From Candidatus Omnitrophota bacterium (GTDB lineage Bacteria > Omnitrophota > Gorgyraeia > Duberdicusellales > 4484-171): a stretch of 64,000 bases of DNA. The notes under the pieces are model-generated. The model saw only the letters and a program-made list of their open reading frames with translations, was not told the DNA's origin and searched no databases. Both the position numbers and the translations under genes were made by a program. Where the stretch lies: NCBI GenBank assembly GCA_043823745.1, contig JBDRAN010000044.1, positions 853-64,852 of the forward strand, in the 5' to 3' direction. Shown one piece after another: positions 1 through 46,892 of the stretch (positions are counted from its first letter, which is position 1; each line of letters begins with the position of its first letter).

Positions 1-16
1 AAAGGCAGAAGCATAT

Positions 17-817: not shown

Positions 818-869
818 CGCAAGGCACAGCCGCTGAGTTCAAACGTTAGATTAGAAAAAAGGAGAAAAG

Positions 870-1295: not shown

Positions 1296-1310
1296 AGATA
1301 GGGGGGTCTT

Positions 1311-1800: not shown

Positions 1801-1830
1801 CTCTGCGTTATAAGCAAAAAATAATATTAA

Positions 1831-2121: not shown

Positions 2122-2143
2122 AATCGCTTATAACAAAGCAATC

Positions 2144-2186
2144 CAGCGGACCGTAAAGCTGCGCTTTCCGGCCGCTGATTTTTGTG
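2144..2186 (+). terminator. Intrinsic terminator-like hairpin (cagcggaccg...cggccgctg) followed by ATTTTTG.
   Basis: A 9-10 bp stem with an inner aaagc/gcttt stem, followed by a T-run, lies immediately 3' of the 1831..2121 ORF. Confidence 0.5.
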
Positions 2187-2201
2187 TTATAAAGAGAAAA
2201 A

Positions 2202-3097: not shown

Positions 3098-3247
3098 AGC
3101 CTTCCCTTGATCAAGCGTCATGCGCCAGATCGATGCTCCGCAAGCAGAGATCGATTATTGCGCGAGCCTTGACGGCACCCATTATGATGTGAATAAGGAT
3201 GGGGGAAATGATGCCGGGGATTATACTCTTCGTAACTGGTAGGTTAG

Positions 3248-24105: not shown

Positions 24106-24351
24106 ATGAAGAAAACAGCGATTATTCTGATGTTGGCAGGTATAGGGGTTATGTGGGGACAGTTCGTTTTAAGCCAGAATAGCGAAGAGCTTATCCCTCG
24201 CGAGAATACTGCCATCTCCCGGGGAACTGTTTCTTCCGCAATCAGCGAAGACGAAAAAGACGAAGATAAGACTGCTAAAGATTACATAATCACCCTGCCC
24301 TTTCCGGCGCTGGATACCAACCTCGCGGTCAGCGAAGAAGCCGTTAGCTAA
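24106..24351 (+). CDS. Small secreted or membrane-anchored acidic protein.
   Basis: 81 aa with an N-terminal hydrophobic signal/anchor and an acidic C-terminal half. A promoter-like sequence lies upstream. Confidence 0.35.
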   Translation: MKKTAIILMLAGIGVMWGQFVLSQNSEELIPRENTAISRGTVSSAISEDEKDEDKTAKDYIITLPFPALDTNLAVSEEAVS

Positions 24352-28867: not shown

Positions 28868-29444
28868 TGAGCGTCCCTCCTATGGTCCTTAAGATAATAC
28901 TCAGGTCATCGATAAGATTGGTGCGGCCGCGAAAATACTCTAAATCATATTTAATTTTTCGAGGCAAAACCTCGTTCAAATAAAATTCCATAAGTTCCTT
29001 CTTTTCCAGAAGCCGCTCTTCATGCAGAAATTTTACGGTTGCAAAGGAAGTAAACCCGGGCCTAAAACATAATATTTCCCGCTGCCATGGCGCATAGTGC
29101 ATAACGAGTTCGGGTATTTCCGGCCGCGGACCGACAACGCTCATATCACCCTTTACAATATTAATAAATTGAGGAAGTTCGTCAAAATTGGTCCTTCGCA
29201 ACAGCTTTCCTGCCCTACTGATACGTGCATCGCCGGCGGCAGTAATGAGGCTCCCTGTTGCCATCTTCATAGTCCGGAATTTAAGGATCATGAAAATGCG
29301 CCCATTCTTGCCGACCCTGCGTTGTTTAAAAATAATCGGGCCGGGCGAATCTACTTTTATCATTACTGCGGCAATGATAAATATTGGGAAGGAAAAAAAT
29401 AAAACAACCAGTGAAAAAACAATATCGAATATTCGCTTTGCCAT
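28860..29444 (-). CDS. Small undecaprenyl-phosphate sugar phosphotransferase (PglC/WbaP C-terminal-domain type). It is the initiating transferase.
   Basis: MAKRIFDIVFSLVVLFFSFPIFIIAAVMIKVDSPGPIIFKQRRVGKNGRIFMILKFRTM is the hallmark bacterial sugar transferase motif. 194 aa. Confidence 0.85.
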   Translation of the reverse strand: MAKRIFDIVFSLVVLFFSFPIFIIAAVMIKVDSPGPIIFKQRRVGKNGRIFMILKFRTMKMATGSLITAAGDARISRAGKLLRRTNFDELPQFINIVKGDMSVVGPRPEIPELVMHYAPWQREILCFRPGFTSFATVKFLHEERLLEKKELMEFYLNEVLPRKIKYDLEYFRGRTNLIDDLSIILRTIGGTLNE

Positions 29445-31821: not shown

Positions 31822-32892
31822 CTACAAAGCACCCGTCGTATGGGTCTGATGGGGCTTGTTGTTTCTTCTGAATCGCCACAAGCCCGTCAAGAATCCAAGC
31901 CCGTAACTTATATGAATAATAGTGAAAACAAAAGGCAGAAAAAACAGCGTAAACGGCAAGCGGCGTGCAACCCACGCACTGAAGATTACATTAAGCACAA
32001 GGTAGGGGCACCCTACAATCAACGCTAAGAAGTTATTCCTTGTCACCAGGCCTACAAGAAAGCTTGCAAGAAGCGCGGCCACAAACAGCGGCGGCACGAT
32101 ATGCCGGAATGAGGGGATTGCATTTCGTTTTTGTATTACACGCACCTTATAAAAACCGTATTGAAAGTATTGCCTCCAGAGGCGCGCCAAGGTACTACGG
32201 CTATAGTAGCGCACCGAAAGCGCCGGGTCGAACCAAATTTTTCCTCCTGCCTGAATAAGCCGAAAATTAAATTCATCGTCCTGATTACGAACAAGCTCCT
32301 CATCAAACATGCCTATCCGCTCGAAAATTACCCGCTGGTACGTGCCCAGATATACCGTATCAACCCATCCGGGTTTGGTTGCATAACGAAAATATGCATT
32401 CCCTGCCCCGAATGGAGAACTGGTAGCCAAAGCAATGGCCTTGCCCACCGTAGTCTCGCTCACCGCGCATTGCATCCCTCCTACGCAATCTGCCCCGGTA
32501 TGTGCTAATAAATCAACACACCGGCGAATGTAGGCACTCGGGATTTCGCAGTGCCCGTCGACACGAACCATAATTGCCCCTTGGGCGTACGCCAAACCGA
32601 TATTAAGCGCTGCGGGCACGATACGAGAAGGGTTATCGAGGAGCGCGATGCGCAGGCGCATGTTGTTTTTGCTCTCGCGATCGATGATTGTTTGTACGAT
32701 TTGCCTGGTTCCATCATCAGACATCCCGTCTACAACAATAACCTCGATTTTTTCTTTCGGATAATCCTGCCGCAGAACCGCGCTGATACTGCGCTCGATA
32801 TATTGCTGTTCGTTACGAATGGGCACGATTACCGAAACACCGGGCTGAGGGGAAGAAAAACTTGACTCTCTACCTTGTGTACTATCAATCAT
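31822..32892 (-). CDS. GT2 glycosyltransferase with C-terminal TM helices (GtrB/ArnC/DPM1-like polyprenyl-phosphate glycosyltransferase).
   Basis: VSVIVPIRNE...VVDGMSDDGT GT2 core, plus two C-terminal hydrophobic helices as in ArnC/GtrB. Confidence 0.65.
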   Translation of the reverse strand: MIDSTQGRESSFSSPQPGVSVIVPIRNEQQYIERSISAVLRQDYPKEKIEVIVVDGMSDDGTRQIVQTIIDRESKNNMRLRIALLDNPSRIVPAALNIGLAYAQGAIMVRVDGHCEIPSAYIRRCVDLLAHTGADCVGGMQCAVSETTVGKAIALATSSPFGAGNAYFRYATKPGWVDTVYLGTYQRVIFERIGMFDEELVRNQDDEFNFRLIQAGGKIWFDPALSVRYYSRSTLARLWRQYFQYGFYKVRVIQKRNAIPSFRHIVPPLFVAALLASFLVGLVTRNNFLALIVGCPYLVLNVIFSAWVARRLPFTLFFLPFVFTIIHISYGLGFLTGLWRFRRNNKPHQTHTTGAL

Positions 32893-32959
32893 AGCGCCTC
32901 AGACATACCATACGGTTTCTCGGCATACAGGGCCGAATGCATCATAAACAATACTAAAG

Positions 32960-33988
32960 TTAAGGCTTACGCGCGAGCGGTTTTCCCTCACGGCAGACTT
33001 GTTCGACCAGATCACACAACGCCTGTTTTCGTGCCGCAAACGAAAAGAGTTCTTTCACTCTTTCTTGTGCCAGAGCGCCTGTCTGCGTATCATCTAAAGC
33101 CTTTATGATGGCGCGCGACAGCTCGCCTGCGTCGTCATACGGCACATAGTAACCGGCCTGACCCACCACTTCAGGAAGCGCTGATGTTGAGGTTACCACG
33201 GGCACGCACCTATGCGCCATAGCCTCAGCGAGAGAGCGCCCGAACTGTTCATGATATGATACCTGGACATATACTGTCGCCCGGGAATAAAACTGGCATA
33301 ACACTTCATTGCTCACCCGGCCGGTTATAATTACATTGTCGGTCACTGAGCCCTGCAGATACCGTGCCATTCGCTTATCAAGGTAACCAACCATAAAAAA
33401 TTTTATTTCCGGAAGCATCGCGGCAGCTTTGATAAACGTTGCCAGCCCTTTCCTTTTCAGATTATTCTCTATGATGTTACCTACGGTTAACACGCTACGC
33501 TCTTTTTTGATATTTTCTGCTCCGCCGCAAGAACACAAGGGAATGCCCTGGTATATCATAGAAATCCTATCGGAAGGAATCTTGCAATTTGTGATAATCT
33601 CTCGCTTGTTGAATTCAGAAACCGCAATAATCCTGTCTGCCAGCGTTATGATGTATCGCGTGATCGCCCTGGTTGGAAAAAACCTCAATCCCTTTCTAAA
33701 CGCTCCATAATTGATTTCAGGCGCGTTTACGCAATCCCACCCGCCGACAACTAAAATTATTTTCTTTTTAAAAAATTTTGCGAACAACAGCGGTATCAAC
33801 GCCGACCGAGACGCAAACCAGCAGAATACGGCATCAACGTTTCGTATGCTGCCTATCCCGCGGGGAATCTTAAAAAACGTATCTTTATAGAAACGTAAAT
33901 CTTCGGCGCAAAAATTATTCTTAAGTATTTCCCAATCGTTTTCTTCGAAACCGGTCCAACCTTGATGCAAAAATAAAATCTTCTTCAT
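32960..33988 (-). CDS. GT4 (GT-B fold) glycosyltransferase.
   Basis: EQFGRSLAEAMAHRCVPVVTSTSALPEVVG is an EX7E-type C-terminal motif. Confidence 0.75.
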   Translation of the reverse strand: MKKILFLHQGWTGFEENDWEILKNNFCAEDLRFYKDTFFKIPRGIGSIRNVDAVFCWFASRSALIPLLFAKFFKKKIILVVGGWDCVNAPEINYGAFRKGLRFFPTRAITRYIITLADRIIAVSEFNKREIITNCKIPSDRISMIYQGIPLCSCGGAENIKKERSVLTVGNIIENNLKRKGLATFIKAAAMLPEIKFFMVGYLDKRMARYLQGSVTDNVIITGRVSNEVLCQFYSRATVYVQVSYHEQFGRSLAEAMAHRCVPVVTSTSALPEVVGQAGYYVPYDDAGELSRAIIKALDDTQTGALAQERVKELFSFAARKQALCDLVEQVCREGKPLARKP

Positions 33989-34018
33989 ACTATACCTGAC
34001 TAAGCCCGTATGGCCCTG

Positions 34019-35221
34019 TTATTTCAAAATGGACTTTACCGCCGCGATAACATCTTCCACGTCAGAAGCGGTAAGCTTGGCGGAAAGAGGAAGCGACAGG
34101 GTTGTATCGGAGACATATTCAGCATTGGGAAAGTCTCCTTTCTTATAGCCGAAATTGTGTTGATAATACGGGCTTAAATGAAGCGCCGTAAAATGAATAC
34201 CGGTGCCGATATTACGTTTATGCAGGCGCTGCTGCATTTCATCGCGCGATATACCCGTAACAGTTTTAGGCACCAGTATCGTGTATAAATGCCGGGCATG
34301 CACCGTATCTCCCTCAACAGGGGCAGGCAGCGTAATCGACAGGCCGGCAAACGCTACGTTGTATCGCTTCCAAATCTTCTCTCTCTTTTTTAAATAGTTC
34401 CCGATTCGTTTAAGCTGATGTATCCCCAAGGAGGCCTGAATATCCATCATATTGTATTTAAAACCCGGGTAAACGACCTGGTACTTGACATGTCCTTTGT
34501 CCGAATACCGATGCCATGCCCCCTTAGACATCCCATGCAAGCCATACATTTCGATACGCTGCGCAAACTCTCTATTATCGGTGGTTACCATTCCTCCTTC
34601 TCCGGTCACTAAATTTTTGGTGGCATAAAAACTAAAACACGTAAGGTCTCCGATAGTTCCGACTTTACGATTCTTATATACACCCTCAATGCAATGCGCG
34701 GCATCTTCAATGACATAGAGATTATATTTCCGCGCGATTGCACGTATCTGCTTCATGTCGCAGGGCCTGCCCGCAAAATGCACAGGGACAATTGCACGCA
34801 GGTGCTTATGCGTTTCTTTATTAACAGGGGAGCCTGTCTTATGGTCAATATAATAATCGCGCTCAATGCACTCATTGATTTTTTGCGGCGATAGATTAAA
34901 CGTCTGGGCATCAACATCAACAAAAACAGGCCGGGCGCCCGTATGTATGATGCTGTTGGCGGTTGCACAGAACGTCAGGGGCGTCGTGATAACTTCGTCA
35001 CCGGGGCCTATTCCAATAGCTACCATTGAGAGATGCAGGCCCGCAGTACAGGAATTAAGCGCCAGGGCGAATTTTGACCCGATGTATTCTCGAAACATTT
35101 CTTCAAAACGATGCACTTTGGGGCCTGTTGATAGCCACCCCGAACGCAACGTAGCCACCACCTCTTTGATCTCTGCTTCCTCGATGCGTGGTGCCCCAAA
35201 AAGTAAAAAATTTTTACGCAT
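34019..35221 (-). CDS. DegT/DnrJ/EryC1/StrS-family sugar aminotransferase (PglE/WbpE-like).
   Basis: FSFYATKNLVTGEGGMVTTD contains the PLP-lysine region. Length 400 aa. Confidence 0.85.
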   Translation of the reverse strand: MRKNFLLFGAPRIEEAEIKEVVATLRSGWLSTGPKVHRFEEMFREYIGSKFALALNSCTAGLHLSMVAIGIGPGDEVITTPLTFCATANSIIHTGARPVFVDVDAQTFNLSPQKINECIERDYYIDHKTGSPVNKETHKHLRAIVPVHFAGRPCDMKQIRAIARKYNLYVIEDAAHCIEGVYKNRKVGTIGDLTCFSFYATKNLVTGEGGMVTTDNREFAQRIEMYGLHGMSKGAWHRYSDKGHVKYQVVYPGFKYNMMDIQASLGIHQLKRIGNYLKKREKIWKRYNVAFAGLSITLPAPVEGDTVHARHLYTILVPKTVTGISRDEMQQRLHKRNIGTGIHFTALHLSPYYQHNFGYKKGDFPNAEYVSDTTLSLPLSAKLTASDVEDVIAAVKSILK

Positions 35222-35307
35222 AAGTTTCTCCTTTATCGTTGATATTGGTGCAATAACCTCATGCCCGTCGCGCCGGGGCGCTCAACAAAGAAATAAACAT
35301 AATCGGC

Positions 35308-36705
35308 TCAGAGACGCTCTTGGGAAGCAGGGTCATTCTCGTTAATCGCAATGACCTCCGCTTCTTCCTCAGGCAAACGCGCCAGCACAAACCCTATTGC
35401 CAGCATAAACCAAAAGGGGACGTAGACTTCCGGAAGGTTAAGATAGCTTTCGATAAAAAATGAGAAGAAAAAACCAAAGAGGCTCGCAAACACCCCTACT
35501 CGATATTCTGCTAATTCGGGATCGCGGGTGCTCCGTATGGATTTACGTAATCGATTGAGAATTTTTATATAAAAGATCATAAATAAAAGTGAGGTAAGAA
35601 TGCCATTGTCGGATGCAAATTGAATAATATCGCTATGAACAAGGCCGCTGCCGGCTAGTCCAATGCCGACAAACGGATGCTCCCTGATGAGCACTAAAGC
35701 TCCTTGCATACGCTCGCGCCGTATGTACGCGCTGGTTCCTACGGCGGATTCCGGATCAAGACCTCTGATGCGGTATTCGATAAACGGAGCAGCAAAATGG
35801 TATGCCATCAATATGAGGCCCAAAAGGATAGTCACTTCCTTCTTCCCCCGATAAAAACTATAGGCCATGAGCCCGGCTAAGACTGCAATCCATATCCCTC
35901 GATAACCCGAAAAAAATATAAATGCGATACAGGAGAGAAATGAAAAAACCATAAAGAACCGTAGAAAACTTGATTTCCTGAAGATATTAAAAAACGAGAT
36001 AATTAAAGGTAAAATCAATGCAAGATATCCGGCAAGCATCGGTCCTCCCCAAAAAGTAGCGGATGCGCGCATAGGCCCGGCTTCTCCCTCTTGCATGATC
36101 GTACCGCCGTACCAGCCTGATAAAAGCGGTATTCGTATCCCGACGTATTCAGCCATTCCCAGCAACGAGTTCAAGAATGCGGTAACAATCAGCACAAAAA
36201 ATATCTTTCTGACGATACCAATATCTTTTACCAAAGCATGTACCACATAAAAAATAGGAAAAGCGCATACTAACAAAATCCCGTATGCGATAGCAAAATT
36301 CATATTCAGGCGGTTCAAGAACGCGGTCACCAGGCCAAACAGTACGCCCAGCAGATAAAGATATCCTGAGGGAAGAAACCACCGTACAAGCGCTCCCGAT
36401 GGTCGTTTTTGAAATATCAAAAGCAATAAAAATAAATATGCGCAAAGAGCAAGGGCGGGGCTAATCCGTATAGCCTGGCCAATATAGATTGTCCGTTGCC
36501 CCAACATAAACATGGCAACACATAAGTAAAGCAGGCTCACAAACGTTTTCTCCTGGGCTTTAACAAATGAAATGAAAATAGCCATACCGATAAAAGCGAT
36601 AATCAAAAATTCTCCCTTGCTAGAAATAGAAAATGCGAAGAAAAGCAGAAGCATGCTGAGGTTGAATAGAAGAGATACCCAGTGAATCTTAATAGGCTTT
36701 TTCAT
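35308..36705 (-). CDS. O-antigen ligase family (Wzy_C domain) membrane protein, WaaL- or PglL-like.
   Basis: 465 aa with about 12 TM helices and a large loop containing conserved R/H residues typical of Wzy_C. Confidence 0.65.
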   Translation of the reverse strand: MKKPIKIHWVSLLFNLSMLLLFFAFSISSKGEFLIIAFIGMAIFISFVKAQEKTFVSLLYLCVAMFMLGQRTIYIGQAIRISPALALCAYLFLLLLIFQKRPSGALVRWFLPSGYLYLLGVLFGLVTAFLNRLNMNFAIAYGILLVCAFPIFYVVHALVKDIGIVRKIFFVLIVTAFLNSLLGMAEYVGIRIPLLSGWYGGTIMQEGEAGPMRASATFWGGPMLAGYLALILPLIISFFNIFRKSSFLRFFMVFSFLSCIAFIFFSGYRGIWIAVLAGLMAYSFYRGKKEVTILLGLILMAYHFAAPFIEYRIRGLDPESAVGTSAYIRRERMQGALVLIREHPFVGIGLAGSGLVHSDIIQFASDNGILTSLLFMIFYIKILNRLRKSIRSTRDPELAEYRVGVFASLFGFFFSFFIESYLNLPEVYVPFWFMLAIGFVLARLPEEEAEVIAINENDPASQERL

Positions 36706-36709
36706 ATTC

Positions 36710-37492
36710 TCATCCTTTTATGCATAACAAATCTTTATAGACAAGAAATTTATTCACGGCGACAAAAAGAGCCCATAACCAACCGCGCCAGCCGTCAATA
36801 AATCCTTTCTTGATGAATAATAGATATATAAAGACACTGCACGGGTATGTGAGAAGCTGATGGGGTTTTATCCTTCGGCCTTCCTGTTTACGCTGAAGAT
36901 ATTCGAGGCGCCGGTATCTGCTCAACTTTTTCCTGATTGTCTCCCAATCCTCAAAACCATAATGCAATACATGTCCCTGCAGCTGCCCGATATTTCCTTC
37001 AACCATTAACTTTTCATGTATCCACGCTCCATTGTATCGGAATTTTTTCTTAAAAAGTCTGATCCTGTTATCAGGATATAAATCGGCGCCCCGCATCCAC
37101 CGGCCCAAAATATGGTTTCGTGTCGGCGTTTTAAAAGCCTCGCACGCACTATCGCCACGGGGCATGATTGCGTTAAGTTCAGACATTAGCTCTTCCGTCA
37201 CGATTTCATCGCTATCAATTTGCAATACCCACTCATTACTGCAGTGTGCTATTGCCCAATTGCGCTGCGTTGAAGGAGATTCGTGTTTATAATAATAAAC
37301 TGCATTGGTATATTCCCGGCAGATGGCAACGGTGTTATCCGAACTAAAACTATCGCACACAACGATTTCCCGAAAGCCCTTAACGCTTGCGAGGCATCGC
37401 CTGATGATCTTCTCATTGTTACAGGTAAGTATAAGTACCGATACGTTATGCATTGCGAATATGACAAAATACGTTCTGTGACTGTGCAGCAT
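36710..37492 (-). CDS. GT2 glycosyltransferase.
   Basis: VSVLILTCNNEKII...CDSFSSDNT GT2 motifs. The true start may be the internal MHNVSV. Confidence 0.7.
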   Translation of the reverse strand: MLHSHRTYFVIFAMHNVSVLILTCNNEKIIRRCLASVKGFREIVVCDSFSSDNTVAICREYTNAVYYYKHESPSTQRNWAIAHCSNEWVLQIDSDEIVTEELMSELNAIMPRGDSACEAFKTPTRNHILGRWMRGADLYPDNRIRLFKKKFRYNGAWIHEKLMVEGNIGQLQGHVLHYGFEDWETIRKKLSRYRRLEYLQRKQEGRRIKPHQLLTYPCSVFIYLLFIKKGFIDGWRGWLWALFVAVNKFLVYKDLLCIKG

Positions 37493-38654
37493 ATTTTTCT
37501 AGAGAGAAGAACTCATTCGCCCTTCGATGCGCATTGCGCCCCATGCGTTTCATTAAGCCCTCATCGCCGATAAAAGTTTCGATGGCCGCGGCAAGCGCGC
37601 TTGGTTGCCCCGGCGGAACCACTATCCCCGAATCAACGTTGATTAATTCGCTTGTCCCCGGAACGCTGGTGGCAACGATAGCCTTCTCCATAGCCATGGC
37701 ATAAATAAGCGTCAAGGGGCAGCCTTCCGGTTCTATCGAAGAATGAACGAATATGTCAATGGCCGCCAACACGCGCGGCAAATCTTCCCGAAAACCCAAC
37801 AAGATAATATCAGTTTCCAAATGTAATTTCTTTATTTCTTCGATAATTAACTCTTTGCATCGAGAGGTTTCAAATATGGTGCCGCCGACTAAAAAAAATT
37901 TAACCCCGGGATGCCTATCCTGTATTATACGAGCGGCCCTAATAAAATCGAGCTGGCCCTTCCAATAGGTAAAACGAGCGATGTGTGCGATAACGATCTG
38001 TTTTTCAATAATACTGAATTCGCTGCGTACGGACTGACGGTCTGCTGTTTCCGGGTTAAATATATCGAGGGGTATCCCGTTGTAAACAAGGGAAATTTTC
38101 TTCCATAAAAATTTATAAAATTGTTCCCGTATCGCTCCGGAACCAACGATAACATGCTCCACGAAGAAATACACCCACATATTGACGCACCAGCGTACCA
38201 CTCCGCATGCTCTGCGTTTATCAATAATTTCCTGCATATCCCATATACACGATGCGGCAACCCCCATGCATGCCAGGCTACCATAAAAATTTGCCATAAG
38301 GCCTTTGGTGCAGACAATCATAAATTTTTCTTTGCGCAGGAAACGGTGATATCGAATCGCGGCATATATAACGGCGAGAAAATTATAGGCAAGCGCAAAC
38401 GGGTTGAACACAATATATTTTTCTCCAAATTGGAAACTCGTAGAAAAAAACCTCGGCCGGGACACGATGCAGTACGGCAGCCGAGCCTGCCTGCATTTTT
38501 CGGTCAGTTTGCCTTCACGCGGGCATATAAACGTGATGGGGAATGTGCTCCGATCGACTCTTTCTGCCAATGCCAGGCTGTTATATTCGATGCCTGCCAT
38601 CTCAGATTCTTGCATCAGGAAAGCGATAGATATCTTTTCGATTATGGTGCTCAT
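37446..38654 (-). CDS. GT4 glycosyltransferase. The start is revised to Met28, which removes a 77-nt overlap.
   Basis: C-terminal GT4 motifs are present (EGCPLTLIYAMAMEKAIVATSVPGTSELI). The ATG at 38654 abuts the stop of the upstream acetyltransferase gene. Confidence 0.7.
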   Translation of the reverse strand: MSTIIEKISIAFLMQESEMAGIEYNSLALAERVDRSTFPITFICPREGKLTEKCRQARLPYCIVSRPRFFSTSFQFGEKYIVFNPFALAYNFLAVIYAAIRYHRFLRKEKFMIVCTKGLMANFYGSLACMGVAASCIWDMQEIIDKRRACGVVRWCVNMWVYFFVEHVIVGSGAIREQFYKFLWKKISLVYNGIPLDIFNPETADRQSVRSEFSIIEKQIVIAHIARFTYWKGQLDFIRAARIIQDRHPGVKFFLVGGTIFETSRCKELIIEEIKKLHLETDIILLGFREDLPRVLAAIDIFVHSSIEPEGCPLTLIYAMAMEKAIVATSVPGTSELINVDSGIVVPPGQPSALAAAIETFIGDEGLMKRMGRNAHRRANEFFSLEKYAAQSQNVFCHIRNA

Positions 38655-38658
38655 TGGC

Positions 38659-39228
38659 TTATTGTTCAAGGCGACGCAACGGCCGTGCAGGCACCCCACC
38701 GACAACGGTATTCTCCGGAACGTCTTTATTAACAAAACTCATAGCAGCCACCAAGGATCTTTTTCCGATGGTAACCCTGCTTTTTATGATTGACCCTGCA
38801 CCTATATATGCATCGTCTTCAATAAGAAGGGGCGCCCGTGCCGGCGGCAAAACGTTGTGTATGCTGCTTTTGCCGGCGTCAAAATGGGTAAGAAGGGTTG
38901 TCCTCATGCCGATAACGACGCGATTACCGATCTTTATTTTGTCCGTAATATCTAAAAACACATCTCTTCCTACATACGCATCATCACCGATTTCCAAGTT
39001 GGCGAAATTATTTTTTGCGTTATGTATTATAAGGGGTGTATGTATCGCAACATTGTTACCGATCGTGGCGCCATATTTTCTTAACGCGGGGACGATAAGG
39101 GACGGAGGGATAAAATAAAAAAGAGCGTTAACGCCATCAAGCTTATAAATTCTATAAGCGATACACAGGAGGCCTTTAAAAAAGAAGGTCATCAAATATT
39201 TCAAGTACGACTTTTTTTCCGTATACAT
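38659..39228 (-). CDS. Hexapeptide-repeat (LbH) sugar N-acetyltransferase (PglD/WbbJ-like).
   Basis: Repeated [LIV]G-x4 hexapeptides are present (IGDDAYVGRDVFL, IGNRVVIGMRTTL). Confidence 0.75.
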   Translation of the reverse strand: MYTEKKSYLKYLMTFFFKGLLCIAYRIYKLDGVNALFYFIPPSLIVPALRKYGATIGNNVAIHTPLIIHNAKNNFANLEIGDDAYVGRDVFLDITDKIKIGNRVVIGMRTTLLTHFDAGKSSIHNVLPPARAPLLIEDDAYIGAGSIIKSRVTIGKRSLVAAMSFVNKDVPENTVVGGVPARPLRRLEQ

Positions 39229-39240
39229 ATCCCCTCCTTT

Positions 39241-40449
39241 TTATTGTTCATATGTCGTATTGCTCCCGGTATCCGGTTGATTTTCTTTTTCTGGCGCATC
39301 CGGTGTTCCTTGAAAAATATGTACGTACCGCGCCGCCATTGCGGTTGCGGTAAAACGGGAAAGAGAACGAGTTGCATTCTGAACCATCGTGTTCCGTAGT
39401 GCCGTATCCTTAAGCAACGTTATTAGTGCCTCAGCCAAGGCTTGAGAGTCATCGTTTTCTACCAAGAGGCCGCTTACGCCATGCTCGATTATTTCCTCGG
39501 GTCCTCCGGAACGGGTTGCGACTACTGTCTTGCCGACGGCAAAGGCTTCAATGATGGTTAAATTAAATGTCTCGTGGCGCGAAGACACAACGACAAACTC
39601 ACATCCGTTCAATAATTGTACTACCTGTGCAGCATTCGCTCTACCAACGAAATGAATCCGGTCGTTAAGGCCCAGCCGATTCACGAGGTGATGCAGAATA
39701 ATTTCGTCTTCCCCTTCGCCGGCGATGATAAGATCAATATGAGGATTAGACCGCGCCACACGGGTAAAGGCCTCAATGAGTACATCTAAGCCTTTATTAT
39801 GGGTAAATCGTGCGTAGGCAAGAAGATATGGCCGCGCATGCACGTACGGCGCCTTATCGTGAAAGGCTTCGGGTTCGATGCCATTATACGTCACGTATGC
39901 TTTATGGGCGACCACGGGATATAATTGGAGAGCGTTCTTCAAAAGAAAATCAGAACAAGCCGTAATAGCGTCTGCGGCGTCAAGAATATTCCTGAGAGCT
40001 ACGATGTTCCTGCCCCTGCGGTGCGCCAAGTAGAATCGTGCAATCTCATCGCCATGCAAGGAGACGATTAGTTTGAATTTTATTTTTTTGTGCGCCTGGA
40101 GCACAAAAGGAATCTGCGCATCGGGAAAATGAATATTAACAACGTCGGGCTTAAAATTCTGTATAAGCATCGTCAATCGGGAAAGCGTCTGGGGATAAAA
40201 ATACCAAGACGCCGCAAAAAGGTCAATACGGCCGTTGAGCAGGTGTCGAAAATCCGGCGATAGAAAAAGCAACCGCGATACCGGCACCCCTTCGATGACT
40301 TCATGCTGCGGCAGAGAACGTGGGTAACGATTAGTCACTACTTCGACGACATGCCCCTGATGCATCAAGGCGCGCGCTAATGTATGCGCTGCATTTTGCA
40401 GGCCACCGAGCACAGGGAGGTATGACGCTGTAAGTATGAAAATACGCAT
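39241..40449 (-). CDS. GT4 glycosyltransferase.
   Basis: ETFNLTIIEAFAVGKTVVATRSGGPEEII is a typical GT4 C-terminal motif. Confidence 0.75.
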   Translation of the reverse strand: MRIFILTASYLPVLGGLQNAAHTLARALMHQGHVVEVVTNRYPRSLPQHEVIEGVPVSRLLFLSPDFRHLLNGRIDLFAASWYFYPQTLSRLTMLIQNFKPDVVNIHFPDAQIPFVLQAHKKIKFKLIVSLHGDEIARFYLAHRRGRNIVALRNILDAADAITACSDFLLKNALQLYPVVAHKAYVTYNGIEPEAFHDKAPYVHARPYLLAYARFTHNKGLDVLIEAFTRVARSNPHIDLIIAGEGEDEIILHHLVNRLGLNDRIHFVGRANAAQVVQLLNGCEFVVVSSRHETFNLTIIEAFAVGKTVVATRSGGPEEIIEHGVSGLLVENDDSQALAEALITLLKDTALRNTMVQNATRSLSRFTATAMAARYVHIFQGTPDAPEKENQPDTGSNTTYEQ

Positions 40450-40455
40450 ACGGTT

Positions 40456-42006
40456 TTATTGCACGCGCCAGACGACAATGCGCGGCTTTGCCTTATTATC
40501 GAATACAGTATACCATCCATGGTGAGTGGCCCGCGCAGATTCGGAATCAAGGAGCCATAGTAAAGAAGGACATTGCCCTGCGCCGTTACGCTCATCAAAG
40601 ACCACCCATTGTATCCCTCGTGTATGTATACTTTGCTCAAAGTTTTCTAACTCCTCCCTGGTAAAACTCTCAAAAAGCTCTCCCGGACGCTGGGCATAAA
40701 AGTAAACATGAGGTTGTGAAGCAAGCACCTTATCATGAGGGCCCGCGTTCGCGTTTAAGAATATGCCGGCCTTTTTAAATTCCATTGCTTGTTCACCTAT
40801 ATGCTCCTTGGTATTTTCGATTGTTGCAAAAATATTAATCAAAAATATCACCGTAAATCCGATAATAATGCCAATCTTTTTATCGTTAACTAACATACGC
40901 CACATGGCAAGGCCCGATGCTAAAACCAAAGGAAGAACGGGCAAAAAATAACGTGGTTCGTCTCTAAAGAATATCGCGCTCAAAAAAGATAAATAGAGCA
41001 TTATACACACGCCCCAAAAGGTTAAGAGACGGCGGTTTTGTTTGCAACGACGAACCGAAAAAATATAACCCGGTACCGCTACATATGCCGGCCAATATGC
41101 TGCGTGTGATATTACGGTCGGTACGTGAACAACAAATCGCTTAATCCATAGGCTGCATAAACGTAACCAGTCTTGTTGACTAATGTTTACATAGGAGGGG
41201 GTGTAAAGGGCACCGTCATACACACCGTTATGAAGCGAAAGCACCACAAGGCGCCAACTATTTATAAACACGGGTGATATCACATTTACGATAATCTGCG
41301 GTAAGCTGCCGATGATAAAGCCAACGCTGCCGATCATAAACTTACGGATAGCCTGAGGTCTATCACCCTTAAGATCGCGTATAACTGAAAAAATAAGTAA
41401 GATAAATATTATATATATATACCTGACCGTAAAACCCAACCCTAAACAAAGACCGGCGAGAAATACTCGTGAATCACGTTGATTGTCCAACAATGCCCAT
41501 AGTGCCATCATCAGAAATGCTGCTGCTAACATGTCGGATTGTGAGAGGGTGCTGTAAAATACAACCGTGGGATTAACAAGCAATAACAATGCTGCCAGCA
41601 ATCCTGTGGAAGGTGCGTACAGTTTCTTTATCACCTTAAGGGAAGCTAGAAGATAAAAAAATCCAGCTACCATAGAAACAAGTTTGCCTGCGGCAAAAGT
41701 ATCGTGCACTATCATATCAAAAAACCGTATCGCAAATACGATTCCTACTCCTGCGCCGAAGATGGGCGGTGAAAAATGCTCGGTAAAAAGCGCTCTGCTT
41801 TTTATCATAAACACGACACCATCGGTTTCGTATCCGGTGATGGGTACGCTGCGAATAGAAAAAAGTATTGTCATGGCGACAATATAGAAAAAGAACAGAA
41901 GGAATACGGCAACTTTCCAAAGAGTGGGATAATGAAAGTAATTTTCCGCGCTGCGCATTGAAGGCGCGCCGGCGGACGAACTGCTGTTATTCCCTAATTG
42001 CATCAC
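40456..42006 (-). CDS. GT-C fold polytopic membrane glycosyltransferase (GT39/GT83 ArnT/PMT-like), paralog A.
   Basis: 516 aa with about 11 N-terminal TM helices. An acidic motif (GYETDG) sits in the first extracytoplasmic loop. A C-terminal soluble domain ends in KPRIVVWRVQ. Confidence 0.6.
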   Translation of the reverse strand: MMQLGNNSSSSAGAPSMRSAENYFHYPTLWKVAVFLLFFFYIVAMTILFSIRSVPITGYETDGVVFMIKSRALFTEHFSPPIFGAGVGIVFAIRFFDMIVHDTFAAGKLVSMVAGFFYLLASLKVIKKLYAPSTGLLAALLLLVNPTVVFYSTLSQSDMLAAAFLMMALWALLDNQRDSRVFLAGLCLGLGFTVRYIYIIFILLIFSVIRDLKGDRPQAIRKFMIGSVGFIIGSLPQIIVNVISPVFINSWRLVVLSLHNGVYDGALYTPSYVNISQQDWLRLCSLWIKRFVVHVPTVISHAAYWPAYVAVPGYIFSVRRCKQNRRLLTFWGVCIMLYLSFLSAIFFRDEPRYFLPVLPLVLASGLAMWRMLVNDKKIGIIIGFTVIFLINIFATIENTKEHIGEQAMEFKKAGIFLNANAGPHDKVLASQPHVYFYAQRPGELFESFTREELENFEQSIHTRGIQWVVFDERNGAGQCPSLLWLLDSESARATHHGWYTVFDNKAKPRIVVWRVQ

Positions 42007-42193
42007 GTATCTCCTTGAAAAATTTATTGCTCATCGGTATTCACCCGCGCGGCGAGGCTCAAAGCTTCGATGAGCGCATCTAAACCTTATGTCTTTCTGT
42101 ATCCGGTGCCCAGCGCCTATATGCACTATATTGTACAAGCCTCCCAATACGGGCAGATAAGAAGCGGTAATGATAAATATGCGCATAGAGTTT

Positions 42194-43747
42194 CTATTGT
42201 ACACGCCAAATTACAATACGAGGTTTTTCCTTATTATCGAAGACGAGATGCCATCCGGTGGCCTGTGCACGCTTTGATTGAGGATTCAGGAGCCAGCGGG
42301 CCGGACGGAATCTTCTTACCGCGTAACGCTCATCAAAAACCACCCATCGTATCCCTAAGTTCTGCACGGTGACAGCGAGAGATCTTAACTGACCGCGGTC
42401 AAGACGCTCAAAAAGCTCCCCTGGGCGGTGCGCATACAATAAAACATGCGGTTGCGAGACAAGGATGCGGTCACCGGGAGAAGCGTGTCTACGCAAAAAC
42501 GTGCCGGCGATTTTAAACTCTGTTGCCTGCGTTTTTAAATAATCCCCGGTATTTTCGATGGTCGCAAAGGTACTAATAGAAAATACCACGAGGAACCCGA
42601 CAATAATGCCGATCTTTTTTTCGCTGACTATGATGCGCCACATTGCCAGGCCAGAAGCTATCACGAGAGGCAAGACAGGCAGGAAATAACGCAGTTCAAG
42701 CTTGTAGGTCGCTGCCAGAGACAAGAGATACATCGTAAGCGCCCCGCCCCAAAGGATCAAGACACGCTTATGGTTCGAAGACCGCAGAAAAAGAAAATAA
42801 CCCGGAACCGCTAGGTATGCGAGCCAATAGGCCGCCGCAAGCAGGCGTTGCGGTATCCAAACAACCACCTGATGAATCCATGAGCTGTATAAGCGGAGCC
42901 AATCATTCAAGGGAATCTGCCCAAGAGATTTAAGCCGATCGGCGGCGTAGGGAACATAAATAGGGTAAGTGACCTGACGCCAGTTATCCGTGTAGAAAGG
43001 AAAGCCAAAAAAAATCATGTTTGTAATAAGCTGGGGAAAGGCTCCTGTCAGAAGACCAAAAGTTCCCATGCATACTGCTTTAATAAAAAAGCCCCGGTGA
43101 CACCTCTGATACACTACAGGAATGATGATGAGCGGCCAAAAGACTATAAAAATGGTCTTCACCGCGAACGCAAACCCCAAACACAGGCCAGCAAAAAAGA
43201 TTTTCAGGAAACTTGTGCGCGTGACGAGAATCCAAATTGCCGTCATAAGAAAAGCGGCTGCCAACATATCAAAGAGCGTCATAGAGCTATAAATGAATAC
43301 GGTGGGATTAACAAAAAGCAGCCAGCCGGTCATAAGCCCTAAGGAAGGCCGATACAGGCGAGCGATTACCTTCCAGGAAGCTAGAAGATAAAAAAATCCG
43401 GCCATCATAGAAACAAGCTTCGCTGCAGCAAAGGTGTTGTGGAGAACTGTATCGAAGAGCCGTATTGTAAGCATCCCACCGATTCCTCCCCCTAAACGAA
43501 ACGCGGCATATGCAGGAAAATGATCGGTAAAGAGAGCCCGACTAAACACCATGTAATAAACACCATCGGTTTCGTGGCCGACCAACGGTACGCTGCGAAA
43601 GCCGGTCATAAACGCCATCGCAGCACTATAGAAAAAAAGCAAAGAAAATAAACCAAGCCCCTGGACAATGCGCCGGTTAAAGCAATTTTCCGGGAACCTC
43701 CGCAAACGCGTGCTCATTAACGAACTAATTGCATACTTCAAACGCAT
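42194..43747 (-). CDS. GT-C fold membrane glycosyltransferase, paralog B. About 55% identical to the 40456..42006 product.
   Basis: Same architecture, with GHETDG in loop 1 and a KPRIVIWRVQ C-terminus. It is a tandem duplicate. Confidence 0.6.
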   Translation of the reverse strand: MRLKYAISSLMSTRLRRFPENCFNRRIVQGLGLFSLLFFYSAAMAFMTGFRSVPLVGHETDGVYYMVFSRALFTDHFPAYAAFRLGGGIGGMLTIRLFDTVLHNTFAAAKLVSMMAGFFYLLASWKVIARLYRPSLGLMTGWLLFVNPTVFIYSSMTLFDMLAAAFLMTAIWILVTRTSFLKIFFAGLCLGFAFAVKTIFIVFWPLIIIPVVYQRCHRGFFIKAVCMGTFGLLTGAFPQLITNMIFFGFPFYTDNWRQVTYPIYVPYAADRLKSLGQIPLNDWLRLYSSWIHQVVVWIPQRLLAAAYWLAYLAVPGYFLFLRSSNHKRVLILWGGALTMYLLSLAATYKLELRYFLPVLPLVIASGLAMWRIIVSEKKIGIIVGFLVVFSISTFATIENTGDYLKTQATEFKIAGTFLRRHASPGDRILVSQPHVLLYAHRPGELFERLDRGQLRSLAVTVQNLGIRWVVFDERYAVRRFRPARWLLNPQSKRAQATGWHLVFDNKEKPRIVIWRVQ

Positions 43748-43804: not shown

Positions 43805-45250
43805 CTATTTCCTGCCCTCTTCCAGATATTCGGCGTCAATATTAATATTCCACAACACGTACGGAGCCCCCGGCAATTGCAGATAATTTCTCGCGGCAAG
43901 GATCCCGCTCATAAGCGAATGATCCTGATTATTATATTTATGCATGCCGGCGCGGCCGATAGAATAAAAATTATCGAATTGGTTAATCCTTGCTTTTAAG
44001 ACCTCGTAGGGCGCTTCGAAACCAATATAATAAAGGGGATATGCGTACGCTTCTCGGACAACCCAAAATTTATCTATCTCCTCGGCTTTAAGTAACCCCA
44101 TGCGCGATAATTCACTACTCGCTAGTTTTCTTAAAGAATCATCAGATTCGTTCCATAAACCCTGCCCGCGAGAAACAAAATATTCCGCACAGAGGGCTGT
44201 CATACCGGCAAACGGGACCATTGCCTTCGAAAAATTGTTGTAATTAGCTACCCGTGCCGTCTGCACTTCCGGAGAATGAACGTATATCCACTGGTCAGGG
44301 AATACATTTTCTCTTCGCACCAACAAATTCACCGAGATATGATCACGGTATCGTAGCATAGCTGCGGCCTTTCGTATATATTCTGGTTCCGGCGGATCGA
44401 AGATGGTAAAAAAACGAGCCATGGGAATACTACTGAAAAAATGTTGAGCCGTGATCGTTACCACGCGGGAATCCGGTTCCATAATATCTACGGAAACGAC
44501 CCTGGTATCTGAGCGATTGAGTTTGATAACCGTATGGTCAAGCATCAGCGTCGCCCCGCGCGACAGCACTTCGTCGCGCATAGCCTCGTACATCTGGCCT
44601 GAACCTAATACGGGGAAGTCGAATTCTTCGACCAACGTCTTAATTGTTGTATGCCGCCGGCCGCGCAACGCACGAACGATAACCGCAAGGCCGTCTAATC
44701 CTCTAATTCTCTGCGCAGCCCACTCTGCGCTGATCTGGCTGCAGGGGATTCCCCAGACTTTCTCCGTGTATGTTTTGAAAAATATTTCATAAAGTTTTCG
44801 CCCAAACCTTTGGCATATCCAATCCTCAAAGCTGGCAGAATCGCCATGCCTGTGGATTTGTGAAGAAAAAAAAGAGAGGGCCGCGCTCAACGATTCCTGA
44901 ACCCCCAACTTACGGAATACATCGGCGGCTTCTACCGGATAGTTAAAATATCGATTCTTATAGAATATGCGCGTCAGGCGCGATACGGGCCTGAAGTCTT
45001 TTCCCAGCATTTCATGCCATATCGTGTTAATCTCATTATTTTTCGTAAAAAAACGGTGGGGGCCGACGTCAAATCGTACCCCGTCATAAATTTCGGTCCT
45101 GGCAACTCCGCCCACGTATACATTCTTATCGATAATAAGGATATCCGTAACACCATGCCTGACTAGTTCCAAAGCCGCGCCCAACCCGGCAGGGCCGGCG
45201 CCGATAATGCAGCATTCATAATTCTTTTTATTTTCTTTCATGTGCTGCAT
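43805..45250 (-). CDS. NAD(P)/FAD-dependent oxidoreductase (amine-oxidase / UDP-galactopyranose-mutase-like fold).
   Basis: The N-terminus CCIIGAGPAGLGAALEL is a dinucleotide-binding motif. Length 481 aa. Confidence 0.6.
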   Translation of the reverse strand: MQHMKENKKNYECCIIGAGPAGLGAALELVRHGVTDILIIDKNVYVGGVARTEIYDGVRFDVGPHRFFTKNNEINTIWHEMLGKDFRPVSRLTRIFYKNRYFNYPVEAADVFRKLGVQESLSAALSFFSSQIHRHGDSASFEDWICQRFGRKLYEIFFKTYTEKVWGIPCSQISAEWAAQRIRGLDGLAVIVRALRGRRHTTIKTLVEEFDFPVLGSGQMYEAMRDEVLSRGATLMLDHTVIKLNRSDTRVVSVDIMEPDSRVVTITAQHFFSSIPMARFFTIFDPPEPEYIRKAAAMLRYRDHISVNLLVRRENVFPDQWIYVHSPEVQTARVANYNNFSKAMVPFAGMTALCAEYFVSRGQGLWNESDDSLRKLASSELSRMGLLKAEEIDKFWVVREAYAYPLYYIGFEAPYEVLKARINQFDNFYSIGRAGMHKYNNQDHSLMSGILAARNYLQLPGAPYVLWNINIDAEYLEEGRK

Positions 45251-45356: not shown

Positions 45357-46892
45357 CTATTTTTTCCGTGCAACAAAAATCACATGCCCGGCAAACTCCA
45401 ACGGCATAACGGTAGTAATCCACTCCATGCTGAAACCATCCCCCCGGCCCAGGCGAAACCAAACAAAACTTATGAAATAACGTATAAACGCCAACGGCAG
45501 AAGCCAGAGGCGCGTAAGCGGAAGCGCTAAATCTGAGAGCGTCTTTCCTCCGTAACGCTGCAAGAATGTCCAGAGGATAAGCGCAAATCCTGAAATATCG
45601 GGAATAAGCACAATATCGGAAAATCCTTCGTCCTTAAGTATACGCTCAAGCACGACGTAACTCATACCGTATGTTGAATGGCCGTGGACCGGCTCCAGAA
45701 AAGAACTCGATCCGCACAGTACCCCTCCTGGTTCAAGCACGCGATAAATTTCTTTGAACGCGCAGGAGGGGTTGTTAAGAAGTGAGGTGACGGTCCAAAA
45801 AATAACACACGCTACTTTTTCTGAACCTATAGGAAGCGTATGGGCATCGCCTGCAATATGGAAGTGCGTTTGAGGATAGTCGAGACCGAACCATGTATAT
45901 CCCGCTTCTATTGCGGCCGCCCTATGCGGCCCCGTACCACAGCCAACATCAAGACAAATACCGTTTCCCGCAGGAAGAAAGTCACGGAGGTCATTCCATT
46001 GCAGGCTTCTTGAAAAAACTTTAAAATCTCTCAGGCGCCACCGGCGGTGCGATACCCCAAAGGGTGACGCGGGCTGGGAAACGATTGTATCATAACGCGC
46101 AGGGACTGTGTTCACTTCCCATATACGCTCAGCGGCTACACCTTTTCCTATATATACGGCATACTGCTTTAAACGCTCCCGGGCCTTCTTTTCCGTACCC
46201 CCCCACAAGCCGATTTGCGATCTGTAGCACAGAACCGCTTGTGCTTTAACGGCGAGGTTAATCGGGAACACGGAAGGCTTCCATAGATGAGCATCCTGAC
46301 GCAAGGAATATTTTTCTACACCGGGCCATGGGTCGTAATGACGAATATGTATGTCTGTACCGGTAAGCCGAGATACTGCCTGACAAACCAGGGCATGGTC
46401 AACGTGGCCGAAAGAATCGATGGGTAGATAGACAAAAGGAGTAAAATTCTCGATGCGTATCCGTTCAATACGCCGCTCCAGGAAAGAAATTATCTCAGCG
46501 GTCAACGCTCCATCATCATCCAAGGGGCACCCCGCAAGAACATCATAGGCACAATAGAGGGGCCTGCCCTCGTGTGTCCGCCGATACGGCGCCTCAATGA
46601 AATTGCAGTGCTCAAAGGAAACGCCAAGAAGGTTACACGCACGCATATCTTCTTCCTGCCGGCAACGGGTAACACTCCTGTTCCCTAAACCCCATTGTGC
46701 ATGAAGATGCCGGGCGAATGCACTCAAAGAAGGACTATCGGCACCTTGTGCAAATAGAGTAAGAACCGTAACCGCTTCGCCCTGCTGGCGTTGCGAATAC
46801 ATAAGCCCTCCGCAGGAAAGTATGGCGTCATCAAAATGAGGAGAAAGATACAAATGATACGGTCGGCGAGAAGAAACATGTTCTGTCATCAT
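45357..46892 (-). CDS. Fusion protein: N-terminal PIG-L/LmbE-family deacetylase plus a C-terminal class I SAM methyltransferase.
   Basis: HLYLSPHFDDAILSCGG is the PIG-L zinc-binding motif. CLDVGCGTGPH is MTase motif I. Confidence 0.7.
   Translation of the reverse strand: MMTEHVSSRRPYHLYLSPHFDDAILSCGGLMYSQRQQGEAVTVLTLFAQGADSPSLSAFARHLHAQWGLGNRSVTRCRQEEDMRACNLLGVSFEHCNFIEAPYRRTHEGRPLYCAYDVLAGCPLDDDGALTAEIISFLERRIERIRIENFTPFVYLPIDSFGHVDHALVCQAVSRLTGTDIHIRHYDPWPGVEKYSLRQDAHLWKPSVFPINLAVKAQAVLCYRSQIGLWGGTEKKARERLKQYAVYIGKGVAAERIWEVNTVPARYDTIVSQPASPFGVSHRRWRLRDFKVFSRSLQWNDLRDFLPAGNGICLDVGCGTGPHRAAAIEAGYTWFGLDYPQTHFHIAGDAHTLPIGSEKVACVIFWTVTSLLNNPSCAFKEIYRVLEPGGVLCGSSSFLEPVHGHSTYGMSYVVLERILKDEGFSDIVLIPDISGFALILWTFLQRYGGKTLSDLALPLTRLWLLPLAFIRYFISFVWFRLGRGDGFSMEWITTVMPLEFAGHVIFVARKK

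Follow-up and report, generated by a model that had tools for sequence, protein, structure and literature searches.

A tandem pair of predicted GT-C glycosyltransferases and an ExoA-like GT2 in a large surface-glycan locus of a Candidatus Omnitrophota bacterium

A large glycan locus holds a GT-C pair and a membrane-anchored GT2

We analysed a stretch of 64,000 nucleotides from a Candidatus Omnitrophota bacterium (assembly GCA_043823745.1, contig JBDRAN010000044.1, positions 853 to 64,852 of the forward strand; hereafter the window), the minus strand of which, from ~14 kb to the window end, forms one very large surface-glycan biosynthesis locus. This locus encodes five radical-SAM (S-adenosylmethionine) enzymes, five glycosyltransferases of family 4 (GT4), four of family 2 (GT2) and three of family 9 (GT9), two Wzy_C proteins and, in addition, methyltransferases. 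Three genes are at the centre of this report: one encodes a GT2 with membrane helices, and a tandem pair encodes two related membrane glycosyltransferases, referred to as copy A and copy B (Table 1). A preliminary description had joined their products into a three-part module, in which an undecaprenyl-phosphate (Und-P)-sugar synthase, a flippase and glycosyltransferases of the GT-C fold class would act in turn. All three open reading frames (ORFs) lie at the coordinates first given, on the minus strand within the glycan operon, the GT2 gene and the pair being separated by 7.5 kb and seven genes. The GT-C part of the proposed module holds, while the synthase was probably misassigned and the flippase is absent from the window. 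As a rare new subfamily, the GT-C pair falls within a well-known enzyme class, and the polysaccharide locus is typical, though very large.

The tandem paralogs are predicted GT-C enzymes with an ArnT/PMT-like layout

Copies A and B are full-length tandem paralogs that share 48% identity (BLASTP, E 9e-156), somewhat below the ~55% first estimated. The NCBI model of copy A has 515 aa, which fits a start one codon downstream, at 42003, and the names given there are 'glycosyltransferase family 39 protein' for A and 'hypothetical protein' for B. The Pfam model PMT_2 (PF13231), with a gathering threshold of 26.1 bits, accepts copy A (44.1 bits) but not copy B (19.0 bits); copy B is assigned to GT-C because it is homologous to A over its full length. 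The loop-1 motifs (GYETDG and GHETDG) and the matching C-terminal ends (KPRIVVWRVQ and KPRIVIWRVQ) that had drawn attention to the pair are both present.

The AlphaFold model of copy A (pLDDT 92.2, pTM 0.91), for which a 62-sequence family alignment served as input, consists of a polytopic helical domain and, after the last membrane helix, the expected C-terminal soluble domain, an alpha/beta fold of ~115 residues. Because lysines precede that last helix, the soluble domain is placed on the outside. When the model was compared with the PDB by Foldseek, all 27 matches at E <= 1e-3 were GT-C enzymes, with STT3, ArnT, ALG12, ALG9, AglB, DPY19, PglB, AftB and Pmt4 among them. The best TM-scores (0.62/0.59) were obtained with Und-P-bound ArnT (5f15), and transporters appeared only below probability 0.3. 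Structure prediction thus upholds the ArnT/PMT-like GT-C layout and gives no transporter or polymerase model. Taken together, these predictions indicate that both tandem proteins are GT-C-fold glycosyltransferases laid out like ArnT and the protein O-mannosyltransferases (PMT).

The same alignment, whose members are 16–72% identical to copy A, revealed ten positions conserved in at least 90% of the 62 sequences: E59, D61, F103, S110, D157, G184, R194, P235, G312 and R351. E59 and D61, which lie in loop 1, are invariant in the seven closest sequences, both copies included. Copies A and B keep every one of the ten residues except for R194, which is K in copy B; the copy B equivalents of E59/D61, D157 and R351 lie in the segments HETDG, FDMLAAA and ELRYFLP. 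That E59 and D61 are retained across sequences of such low identity indicates conservation far beyond chance. When the family profile is aligned with PDB sequences, D157 falls opposite the Asp in the 'TLDM' segment of ArnT, probably the catalytically required Asp of that enzyme. We therefore infer a putative active site composed of the loop-1 residues E59 and D61 together with D157 and R351. The predicted topology, namely the position of the lysines and of the loop-1 motif after the first membrane helix, suggests that the donor would be a polyprenyl-phosphate-linked sugar on the outer face of the membrane.

The GT-C subfamily is rare and copy B appears to be an older duplicate

A word-indexed search of 5.8 billion clusters returned seven proteins at E <= 1e-5, copies A and B among them. 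A profile search of 1.84 billion cluster representatives gave 412 matches at E <= 1e-10, of which 40 reached E <= 1e-30, and a pattern scan of the GTDB species genomes found one locus only, identical to one already in our set (L006). In the two family cases for which the source gives an organism, it is an Omnitrophota bacterium. Seven related GT-C loci on contigs of uncultured lineages (L001, L002, L005, L006, L007, L008 and L009) were compared with the window, and L006 is the nearest relative: it has a single GT-C gene, the product of which is 71% identical to copy A, and it shares with the window the upstream genes for a PIG-L/methyltransferase fusion and a flavin (FAD)-dependent oxidoreductase, the latter 72.5% identical and in the same position. 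The L006 locus also has the same radical-SAM/SPASM genes upstream of its GT-C gene.

In a neighbour-joining tree (computed without support values), copy B is sister to copy A plus the L006 ortholog and sits on a longer branch. By this topology copy B is an older in-family duplicate, either retained only here or lost in L006. The longer branch, the PMT_2 score below the gathering threshold and the lack of a counterpart at the same position in L006 could all be taken to mean that the duplicate is decaying or has no catalytic activity, which would leave copy A as the only working one. We give this a slim chance, as the copy B ORF is full-length and intact, and its one departure from the family-invariant residues is the R194 to K exchange. 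Further PMT_2-like genes, only distantly related, occur in L005, L007 and L009, which indicates that several GT-C genes per locus are common in such loci. The second PMT_2 gene of L007 was considered as an ortholog of copy B and rejected, being only distantly related. Large PMT-like proteins of 682–706 aa were also seen at the edges of related loci. It is reasonable to suppose that duplicated GT-C enzymes of this kind would serve two acceptors or two linkages.

The membrane-anchored GT2 is probably of the ExoA/WbgV type

The product of the GT2 gene has, as first described, a GT2 core (PF00535, E 8e-24; PF13641 over residues 17–241). It does carry membrane helices: hydropathy and the AlphaFold model (pLDDT 88.5) both predict three at its C-terminal end (residues 262–284, 288–311 and 319–342) where two had been counted, and an interface helix (235–255) precedes them. 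More than 7,000 homologues were found at E <= 1e-10, and many of those at 54–61% identity are named ExoA by JGI (KEGG K16557). By tblastn against plasmids the protein matches exoA of S. meliloti pSymB (28.5% identity over residues 21–343, 91% of the length, E 2e-31), and tblastn also matches it to wbgV of the S. sonnei O-antigen cluster (31.6% identity over residues 1–340, 96%). PcManGT is the best of the solved relatives (phmmer 1.7e-13; family profile 1.9e-20) and is matched by Foldseek over the whole length of the model (TMq 0.59); the other Foldseek matches, CgT, TarP, TarS, RmlT and WrtF, are GT2s with glycan or polymer acceptors. At the DxD position the family keeps an invariant D-G-H, and an equally invariant F-D-E(-E) aligns with the catalytic-base region of PcManGT (PMC12595478). 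Its third membrane helix contains invariant H327, Y330, G331, G333, F334 and G337.

The preliminary description had placed this GT2 with the polyprenyl-phosphate sugar synthases ArnC, GtrB and Ppm1. The likeness to enzymes of that class is confined to the N-terminal, nucleotide-binding part: the family profile matches ArnC (2.4e-7), GtrB (3.4e-5) and DPMS (4.6e-5) over the first ~120–140 positions only, within profile positions 6–141, hhalign pairs the protein with E. coli GtrB over residues 19–138 only, and the NCBIfam ArnC model reaches 25 bits, against a cut-off of 529, over residues 19–146 only. Such matches are generic, because any GT2 aligns over that part. Together with the homology to ExoA and WbgV over nearly the whole length, this argues that the GT2 is probably an enzyme of the ExoA/WbgV type and not an Und-P-sugar synthase.

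One homologue, P0096 (538 aa), bears on the topology: in this protein the GT2, its membrane helices included, is fused C-terminally to a priming transferase domain (Bac_transf) through a basic linker, and hence the C-terminus of the GT2 membrane region would face the cytoplasm. The cytoplasm-type linker of P0096 and the strongly basic C-terminal tail of our GT2 suggest an even number of membrane crossings. The P0096 topology is hard to reconcile with three full crossings.

The genomic neighbours of the GT2 were compared in three loci that hold its closest homologues (53–57% identical). These loci have genes for GT4 (3/3), DegT (2/3), Bac_transf (2/3), Wzy_C (2/3) and Wzx (1/3), and none has a GT-C gene. 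Conversely, among the six longer related GT-C loci, an ExoA-like GT2 lies within 10 kb of the GT-C gene in L001, L007, L008 and L009 and was not found in the sampled parts of L002 and L005. In the window a priming transferase gene lies 2.4 kb from the GT2 gene. By this comparison the steady partners of the ExoA-like GT2 are primer-making genes, not GT-C genes.

The evidence just given also bears on a rival reading closer to the original proposal, in which the GT2 would be a non-canonical, PcManGT-like polyprenyl-phosphate sugar synthase that feeds both GT-C enzymes after flipping. No other GT2 with membrane helices is encoded in the window or the related loci, this one co-occurs with GT-C in the four loci named above, and the GT-C enzymes need a lipid-linked donor for which no other synthase is visible. 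The invariant residues of the third helix show that the membrane part is functional, and PcManGT, the best structural match, reportedly requires dolichyl phosphate. We nevertheless consider this reading unlikely: the homology is with ExoA and WbgV over the full length and only generic and N-terminal with ArnC, GtrB and DPMS, the closest homologues stand in loci without GT-C, one homologue is fused to a priming transferase, the GT2 is absent from the sampled parts of two GT-C loci, and no flippase gene was detected in the window.

The GT-C gene is a fixed part of a conserved glycan-assembly operon

The surroundings of the GT-C gene are strongly patterned. In all seven related loci a GT4 gene directly follows it, in six of the seven a GT4 gene also precedes it, and the stop and start codons of the GT-C gene and its GT4 neighbours frequently overlap. 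A conserved block runs from GT4 through GT-C, GT4, hexapeptide acetyltransferase, Wzy_C and GT2 (~255 aa) to GT4, and parts of it are missing or rearranged in some loci. Homologues of the soluble GT2 of this block, 32–39% identical, are present in all the longer loci (L001, L002, L005, L007, L008 and L009). From this order we conclude that GT-C belongs to the assembly operon as a constant member rather than as a mobile add-on module.

Upstream, a PIG-L/methyltransferase gene lies one to three genes from the GT-C gene in L001, L006, L007, L008 and L009, and the methyltransferase part only is found in L002; in L001 (6119-8854), L007 (6052-8796), L008 (2345-5101) and L009 (2170-4257) it is fused to a GT4. 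No other upstream neighbour of the GT-C family is as constant as this PIG-L de-N-acetylase/methyltransferase. The FAD oxidoreductase, by contrast, stands beside the GT-C gene only in the window and L006 and is absent from that place in the other related loci. It belongs to the uncharacterised PRK07208 family and has N-terminal similarity to UDP-galactopyranose mutase.

The flippase part of the proposed module was looked for and not found. Family scans and tblastn found no gene for a Wzx, MATE or ATP-binding cassette (ABC) exporter, for GtrA or ArnE/F, or for a UbiA-type enzyme in the 64-kb window, and the Pfam lists of the seven related loci lack GtrA, ArnE/F, MATE and Wzx flippases as well as any UbiA-type synthase. 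A Wzt-type ABC transporter is present in L001 and L007. Around the conserved glycosyltransferase block the export route differs, with Wza, Wzc and two Wzy_C proteins in the window and Wzt in those two loci.

The missing exporter raises the question of whether one or both GT-C-like proteins might themselves be mainly flippases, in the manner of archaeal Agl23, and stand in for Wzx or an ABC transporter. TIGR03663 ('flippase activity-associated protein Agl23') presumably shares N-terminal similarity with Pfam PMT, and copy A matches it weakly (E 1.1e-4, 21 bits). This score is far under the cut-off of 126 bits and is to be expected between related polytopic PMT-like proteins. Agl23 is reported to have translocated a lipid-linked oligosaccharide in proteoliposomes (PMC11182771). 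The orthologs in L001 and L007 coexist with the Wzt transporter, and the strictly conserved acidic residues of loop 1, D157 and R351 fit catalysis, so that we hold a flippase role to be the least probable of the alternatives.

A second alternative concerns the donor: in the manner of oligosaccharyltransferases or ligases, the GT-C enzymes would use a finished oligosaccharide on undecaprenyl pyrophosphate (Und-PP) and, instead of adding single sugars from an Und-P-sugar, transfer it en bloc, the recipient being a protein, lipid A-core or a growing chain. The presence of STT3, AglB and PglB among the top Foldseek matches, the status of the GT-C gene in the assembly operon, where it is obligatory and translationally coupled rather than an add-on, and the lack of an Und-P-sugar synthase and a dedicated small flippase are all in keeping with it. 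Size and layout fit ArnT best, however (~515 aa, C-terminal domain of ~115 aa, 5f15 with the top TM-scores), the C-terminal domain is far smaller than the periplasmic domains of STT3, PglB and AglB, and Wzy_C ligase or polymerase candidates are already available in the loci. En bloc transfer thus seems to us quite improbable.

Further gene content of the window

The features of the locus are collected in Table 1. None of the GT9, GT4 and Wzy_C genes matched an NCBIfam model above its curated cut-off; for the GT4 directly downstream of copy A the top match was BshA-like (121 bits), under its cut-off. For the hexapeptide-repeat protein a PglD-type role was considered and dropped, since its best matches are WcaF-type O-acetyltransferases. 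A promoter and terminator scan of the region from 28 to 47.5 kb yielded no excess over shuffled sequence and was uninformative on the 187-bp gap between the paralogs.

Table 1. Features of the glycan locus in the window
Coordinates	Strand	Product	Evidence or remark
16445-18274	-	Wzc-like export protein	
18349-19731	-	Wza-like export protein	
	-	Beta-barrel protein	Among the export genes
21130-21711	-	PilZ-domain membrane protein	Between export and assembly genes
24348-25661	-	HAMP-GGDEF diguanylate cyclase	Between export and assembly genes
25695-26810	-	FAD_binding_3 protein, 371 aa	Just before dehydratase and priming-transferase genes
26975-28867	-	Membrane-anchored Polysacc_synt_2 (PglF/WbpM/CapD-type) nucleotide-sugar 4,6-dehydratase	PF02719, E 1.4e-99
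28860-29444	-	Small priming phosphoglycosyl transferase (Bac_transf), maker of Und-PP-sugar primer	PF02397, E 2.7e-53; TIGR03025, 201 bits
30401-31975	-	Radical-SAM enzyme	
31822-32892	-	ExoA/WbgV-like membrane-anchored GT2, 356 aa	PF00535, PF13641
32960-33988	-	GT4 adjoining the ExoA-like GT2	Pfam
34019-35221	-	DegT/PglE-type sugar aminotransferase	PF01041, E 1.6e-125
35308-36705	-	Wzy_C polytopic protein (O-antigen polymerase or ligase type)	PF04932, 33.7 bits; homologues in L001, L002, L005, L007
36710-37492	-	Soluble GT2, 260 aa	No predicted membrane helix
37446-38735	-	GT4 glycosyltransferase	
38659-39228	-	Hexapeptide-repeat acetyltransferase, WcaF-like	Member of conserved block
39241-40449	-	GT4 directly downstream of copy A	Pfam GT4/GT1; this neighbour in every related locus
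40456-42006	-	GT-C paralog, copy A, 516 aa	From GTG start
42194-43747	-	GT-C paralog, copy B, 517 aa	More divergent copy
43805-45250	-	FAD-dependent oxidoreductase, PRK07208 family	Directly upstream of GT-C pair; NF005548, 545 bits (cut-off 389)
45357-46892	-	PIG-L de-N-acetylase fused to SAM methyltransferase	PF02585, PF08241
49010-50062	-	Radical-SAM enzyme	
50157-52103	-	Radical-SAM enzyme	
52202-54292	-	Polytopic membrane protein, 696 aa	~12 hydrophobic segments and C-terminal soluble part
56667-58229	-	Radical-SAM enzyme	
58285-59769	-	Radical-SAM enzyme	

The density of radical-SAM enzymes is unusual. Three of the five are B12-binding, two have SPASM domains and one is a methyltransferase fusion, which suggests C-methylation or other radical chemistry on sugars. 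The first of them is listed as an ORF of 524 aa that overlaps the GT2 gene by 154 bases, because the listed start is an upstream GTG; the start is likely an internal Met (MKHLKITLVDPGL; MKHLKITL...) about 60 codons in. The 696-aa polytopic protein has no Pfam or NCBIfam match, and hhalign against the GT-C family reached a probability of only 26%, over its C-terminal half alone; it may be another divergent GT-C-like protein, or else the exporter that is missing.

Other observations concern genes further from the pair. The PilZ-domain and HAMP-GGDEF genes are a hint of control of the glycan by cyclic di-GMP, and outside the glycan locus the N-terminus of the 5433-7466 product looks PilZ-like by eye. 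The FAD_binding_3 protein gave us the impression, from its sequence, of a geranylgeranyl-reductase-type enzyme, which could modify the polyprenol carrier. At the other end of the window, positions 1-3100 carry small plus-strand ORFs, and the G+C content is 33.5% in the first 2 kb against ~45% elsewhere; this stretch stops where minus-strand housekeeping genes start and may be foreign DNA.

A proposed periplasmic step on the glycan of the locus

The reading we favour, with moderate confidence, is that copies A and B are ArnT-like periplasmic sugar transferases that act on the glycan of this locus, that the GT2 is an ExoA-type enzyme, and that the donor synthase and the flippase are encoded elsewhere. 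The pathway would begin with the PglF-like dehydratase and the DegT aminotransferase, which would supply an amino-sugar precursor for the priming transferase to convert into an Und-PP-amino-sugar primer. On the cytoplasmic face the ExoA-like GT2 would add the second sugar to this Und-PP-linked primer, and extension of the glycan would fall to the operon's cytoplasmic GT4, GT2 and GT9 enzymes. After export, on the periplasmic face, each GT-C copy would draw a sugar from a polyprenyl-phosphate donor and transfer it, the acceptor being the operon-made glycan or its lipid-linked or lipopolysaccharide (LPS)-type acceptor, with copies A and B acting at different acceptor positions or linkages. The synthase and flippase that this donor calls for would be encoded elsewhere in the genome. 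The proposed periplasmic step follows the logic of ArnT, of RgtA/RgtB and of the three-component systems, and with it established GT-C enzymology.

Several points weigh against this reading. Neither a donor synthase nor a flippase was found in the 64 kb, which leaves periplasmic transfer without a visible supply line. The sequence similarity between the family and ArnT is weak (hmmsearch E 1.6e-3), and hhalign against the single E. coli ArnT gave a probability of only 15%, so that it is the fold search which supports the relationship to ArnT. In the Foldseek ranking, STT3-type oligosaccharyltransferases stand level with ArnT, and hence the donor class may be either an Und-P-monosaccharide or an Und-PP-oligosaccharide. 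The ExoA-like GT2, finally, is the sole membrane-embedded GT2 in the window and the related loci and is near the GT-C gene in four of the six longer ones, and with PcManGT reportedly dependent on dolichyl phosphate, a lipid-phosphate acceptor would be possible for this GT2 subgroup.

A different order of events is suggested by two hints, namely the order PIG-L/methyltransferase, GT4, GT-C in most related loci and the best PDB sequence match of the GT-C family profile, which is GPI (glycosylphosphatidylinositol) mannosyltransferase 1 (E 1.1e-4). Here the GT-C enzyme would perform an obligatory outer-face step: a GT4 would add N-acetylglucosamine, the PIG-L-family enzyme would de-N-acetylate it, the product would be flipped and the GT-C enzyme would extend it. 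This order is formally, and speculatively, parallel to the assembly of the GPI-anchor core by PIG-A, PIG-L and PIG-M or to mycobacterial phosphatidylinositol mannoside assembly. We regard it as a long shot; if true, it would imply a new class of bacterial glycolipid or glycan in Omnitrophota-like lineages.

The ArnT-like reading, if true, would give the first functional placement of a rare GT-C subfamily that is firmly built into a conserved operon for surface glycans in uncultured lineages, and it makes E59, D61, D157 and R351 testable as catalytic residues. The gain is incremental, since periplasmic glycosylation by GT-C enzymes already has a well-established general mechanism, and nothing that we found contradicts current understanding. 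For annotation, the GT2 is also a warning: C-terminal membrane helices after a GT2 domain are not enough to call a protein an Und-P-sugar synthase, because enzymes of the ExoA, WbgV and PcManGT type have the same layout.

Comparison with known systems

ExoA, a succinoglycan glucosyltransferase of S. meliloti, belongs with the enzymes that attach glucose residues once ExoY has primed the lipid carrier with galactose (PMC1403797). Our GT2 is homologous to ExoA and WbgV over 91–96% of its length, the membrane part included, though at only 28–32% identity, and, like exoA in the exo cluster, its gene has a priming phosphoglycosyl transferase gene nearby. PcManGT of Pyrobaculum (6YV7) has three antiparallel membrane helices (PMC10569066), as predicted for our GT2, and the D-x-H and FDEE motifs align with its DxD and catalytic-base regions. 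The two are 21% identical, and the N-terminal membrane helix of PcManGT is missing in our GT2, the alignment starting at PcManGT residue 41.

For the paralogs, ArnT (GT83; lipid A L-Ara4N transferase; 5EZM/5F15) is the closest known enzyme by structure, with the same GT-C fold and the best PDB TM-score (0.62). The two have a similar length, a small C-terminal periplasmic alpha/beta domain and an acidic loop-1 residue in common, and D157 aligns with the 'TLDM' Asp. They differ in that sequence similarity is marginal, with no match of the paralogs to the NCBIfam ArnT equivalog, and in genomic setting: the ArnT gene belongs to a lipid A modification operon, whereas the GT-C gene stands among the GT4 genes of a glycan-assembly operon. 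Family scans found none of the arnB/C/A/D/E/F genes in the window; tblastn with E. coli ArnT, ArnE and ArnF gave nothing, and with ArnC the matches were confined to the N-terminus of GT2s. The eukaryotic and actinobacterial PMT enzymes (GT39) also have the GT-C fold and acidic residues in loop 1, although Pmt structures match the copy A model only partially (TMq 0.3–0.42) and Pfam detects neither PF02366 (PMT) nor a MIR domain in the paralogs. We thus place the paralogs as GT-C members and not as orthologs of ArnT or PMT.

Three-component systems are known in several forms, with GtrA, GtrB and a Gtr-type GT-C, with ArnC, ArnEF and ArnT, or with PPPRS, MATE and GT136 (PMC11127046). What our locus would share with them is a GT-C enzyme that presumably acts after export on a cytoplasm-built glycan; in the window and the seven related loci the GT-C is the one component identifiable, the candidate GT2 being ExoA-like.

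The Rhizobium enzymes RgtA and RgtB are ArnT-like GT-C enzymes that use a polyprenyl-phosphate-galacturonic acid (GalA) donor, the synthase of which is encoded elsewhere. Each of the two adds GalA to the outer Kdo of the LPS core, at distinct positions (PMC4402001). We liken the GT-C pair to them by description and not by sequence, as two related enzymes that modify distinct positions of one glycolipid, and the same logic, a duplicated GT-C enzyme with a remote donor synthase, is what we propose for copies A and B.

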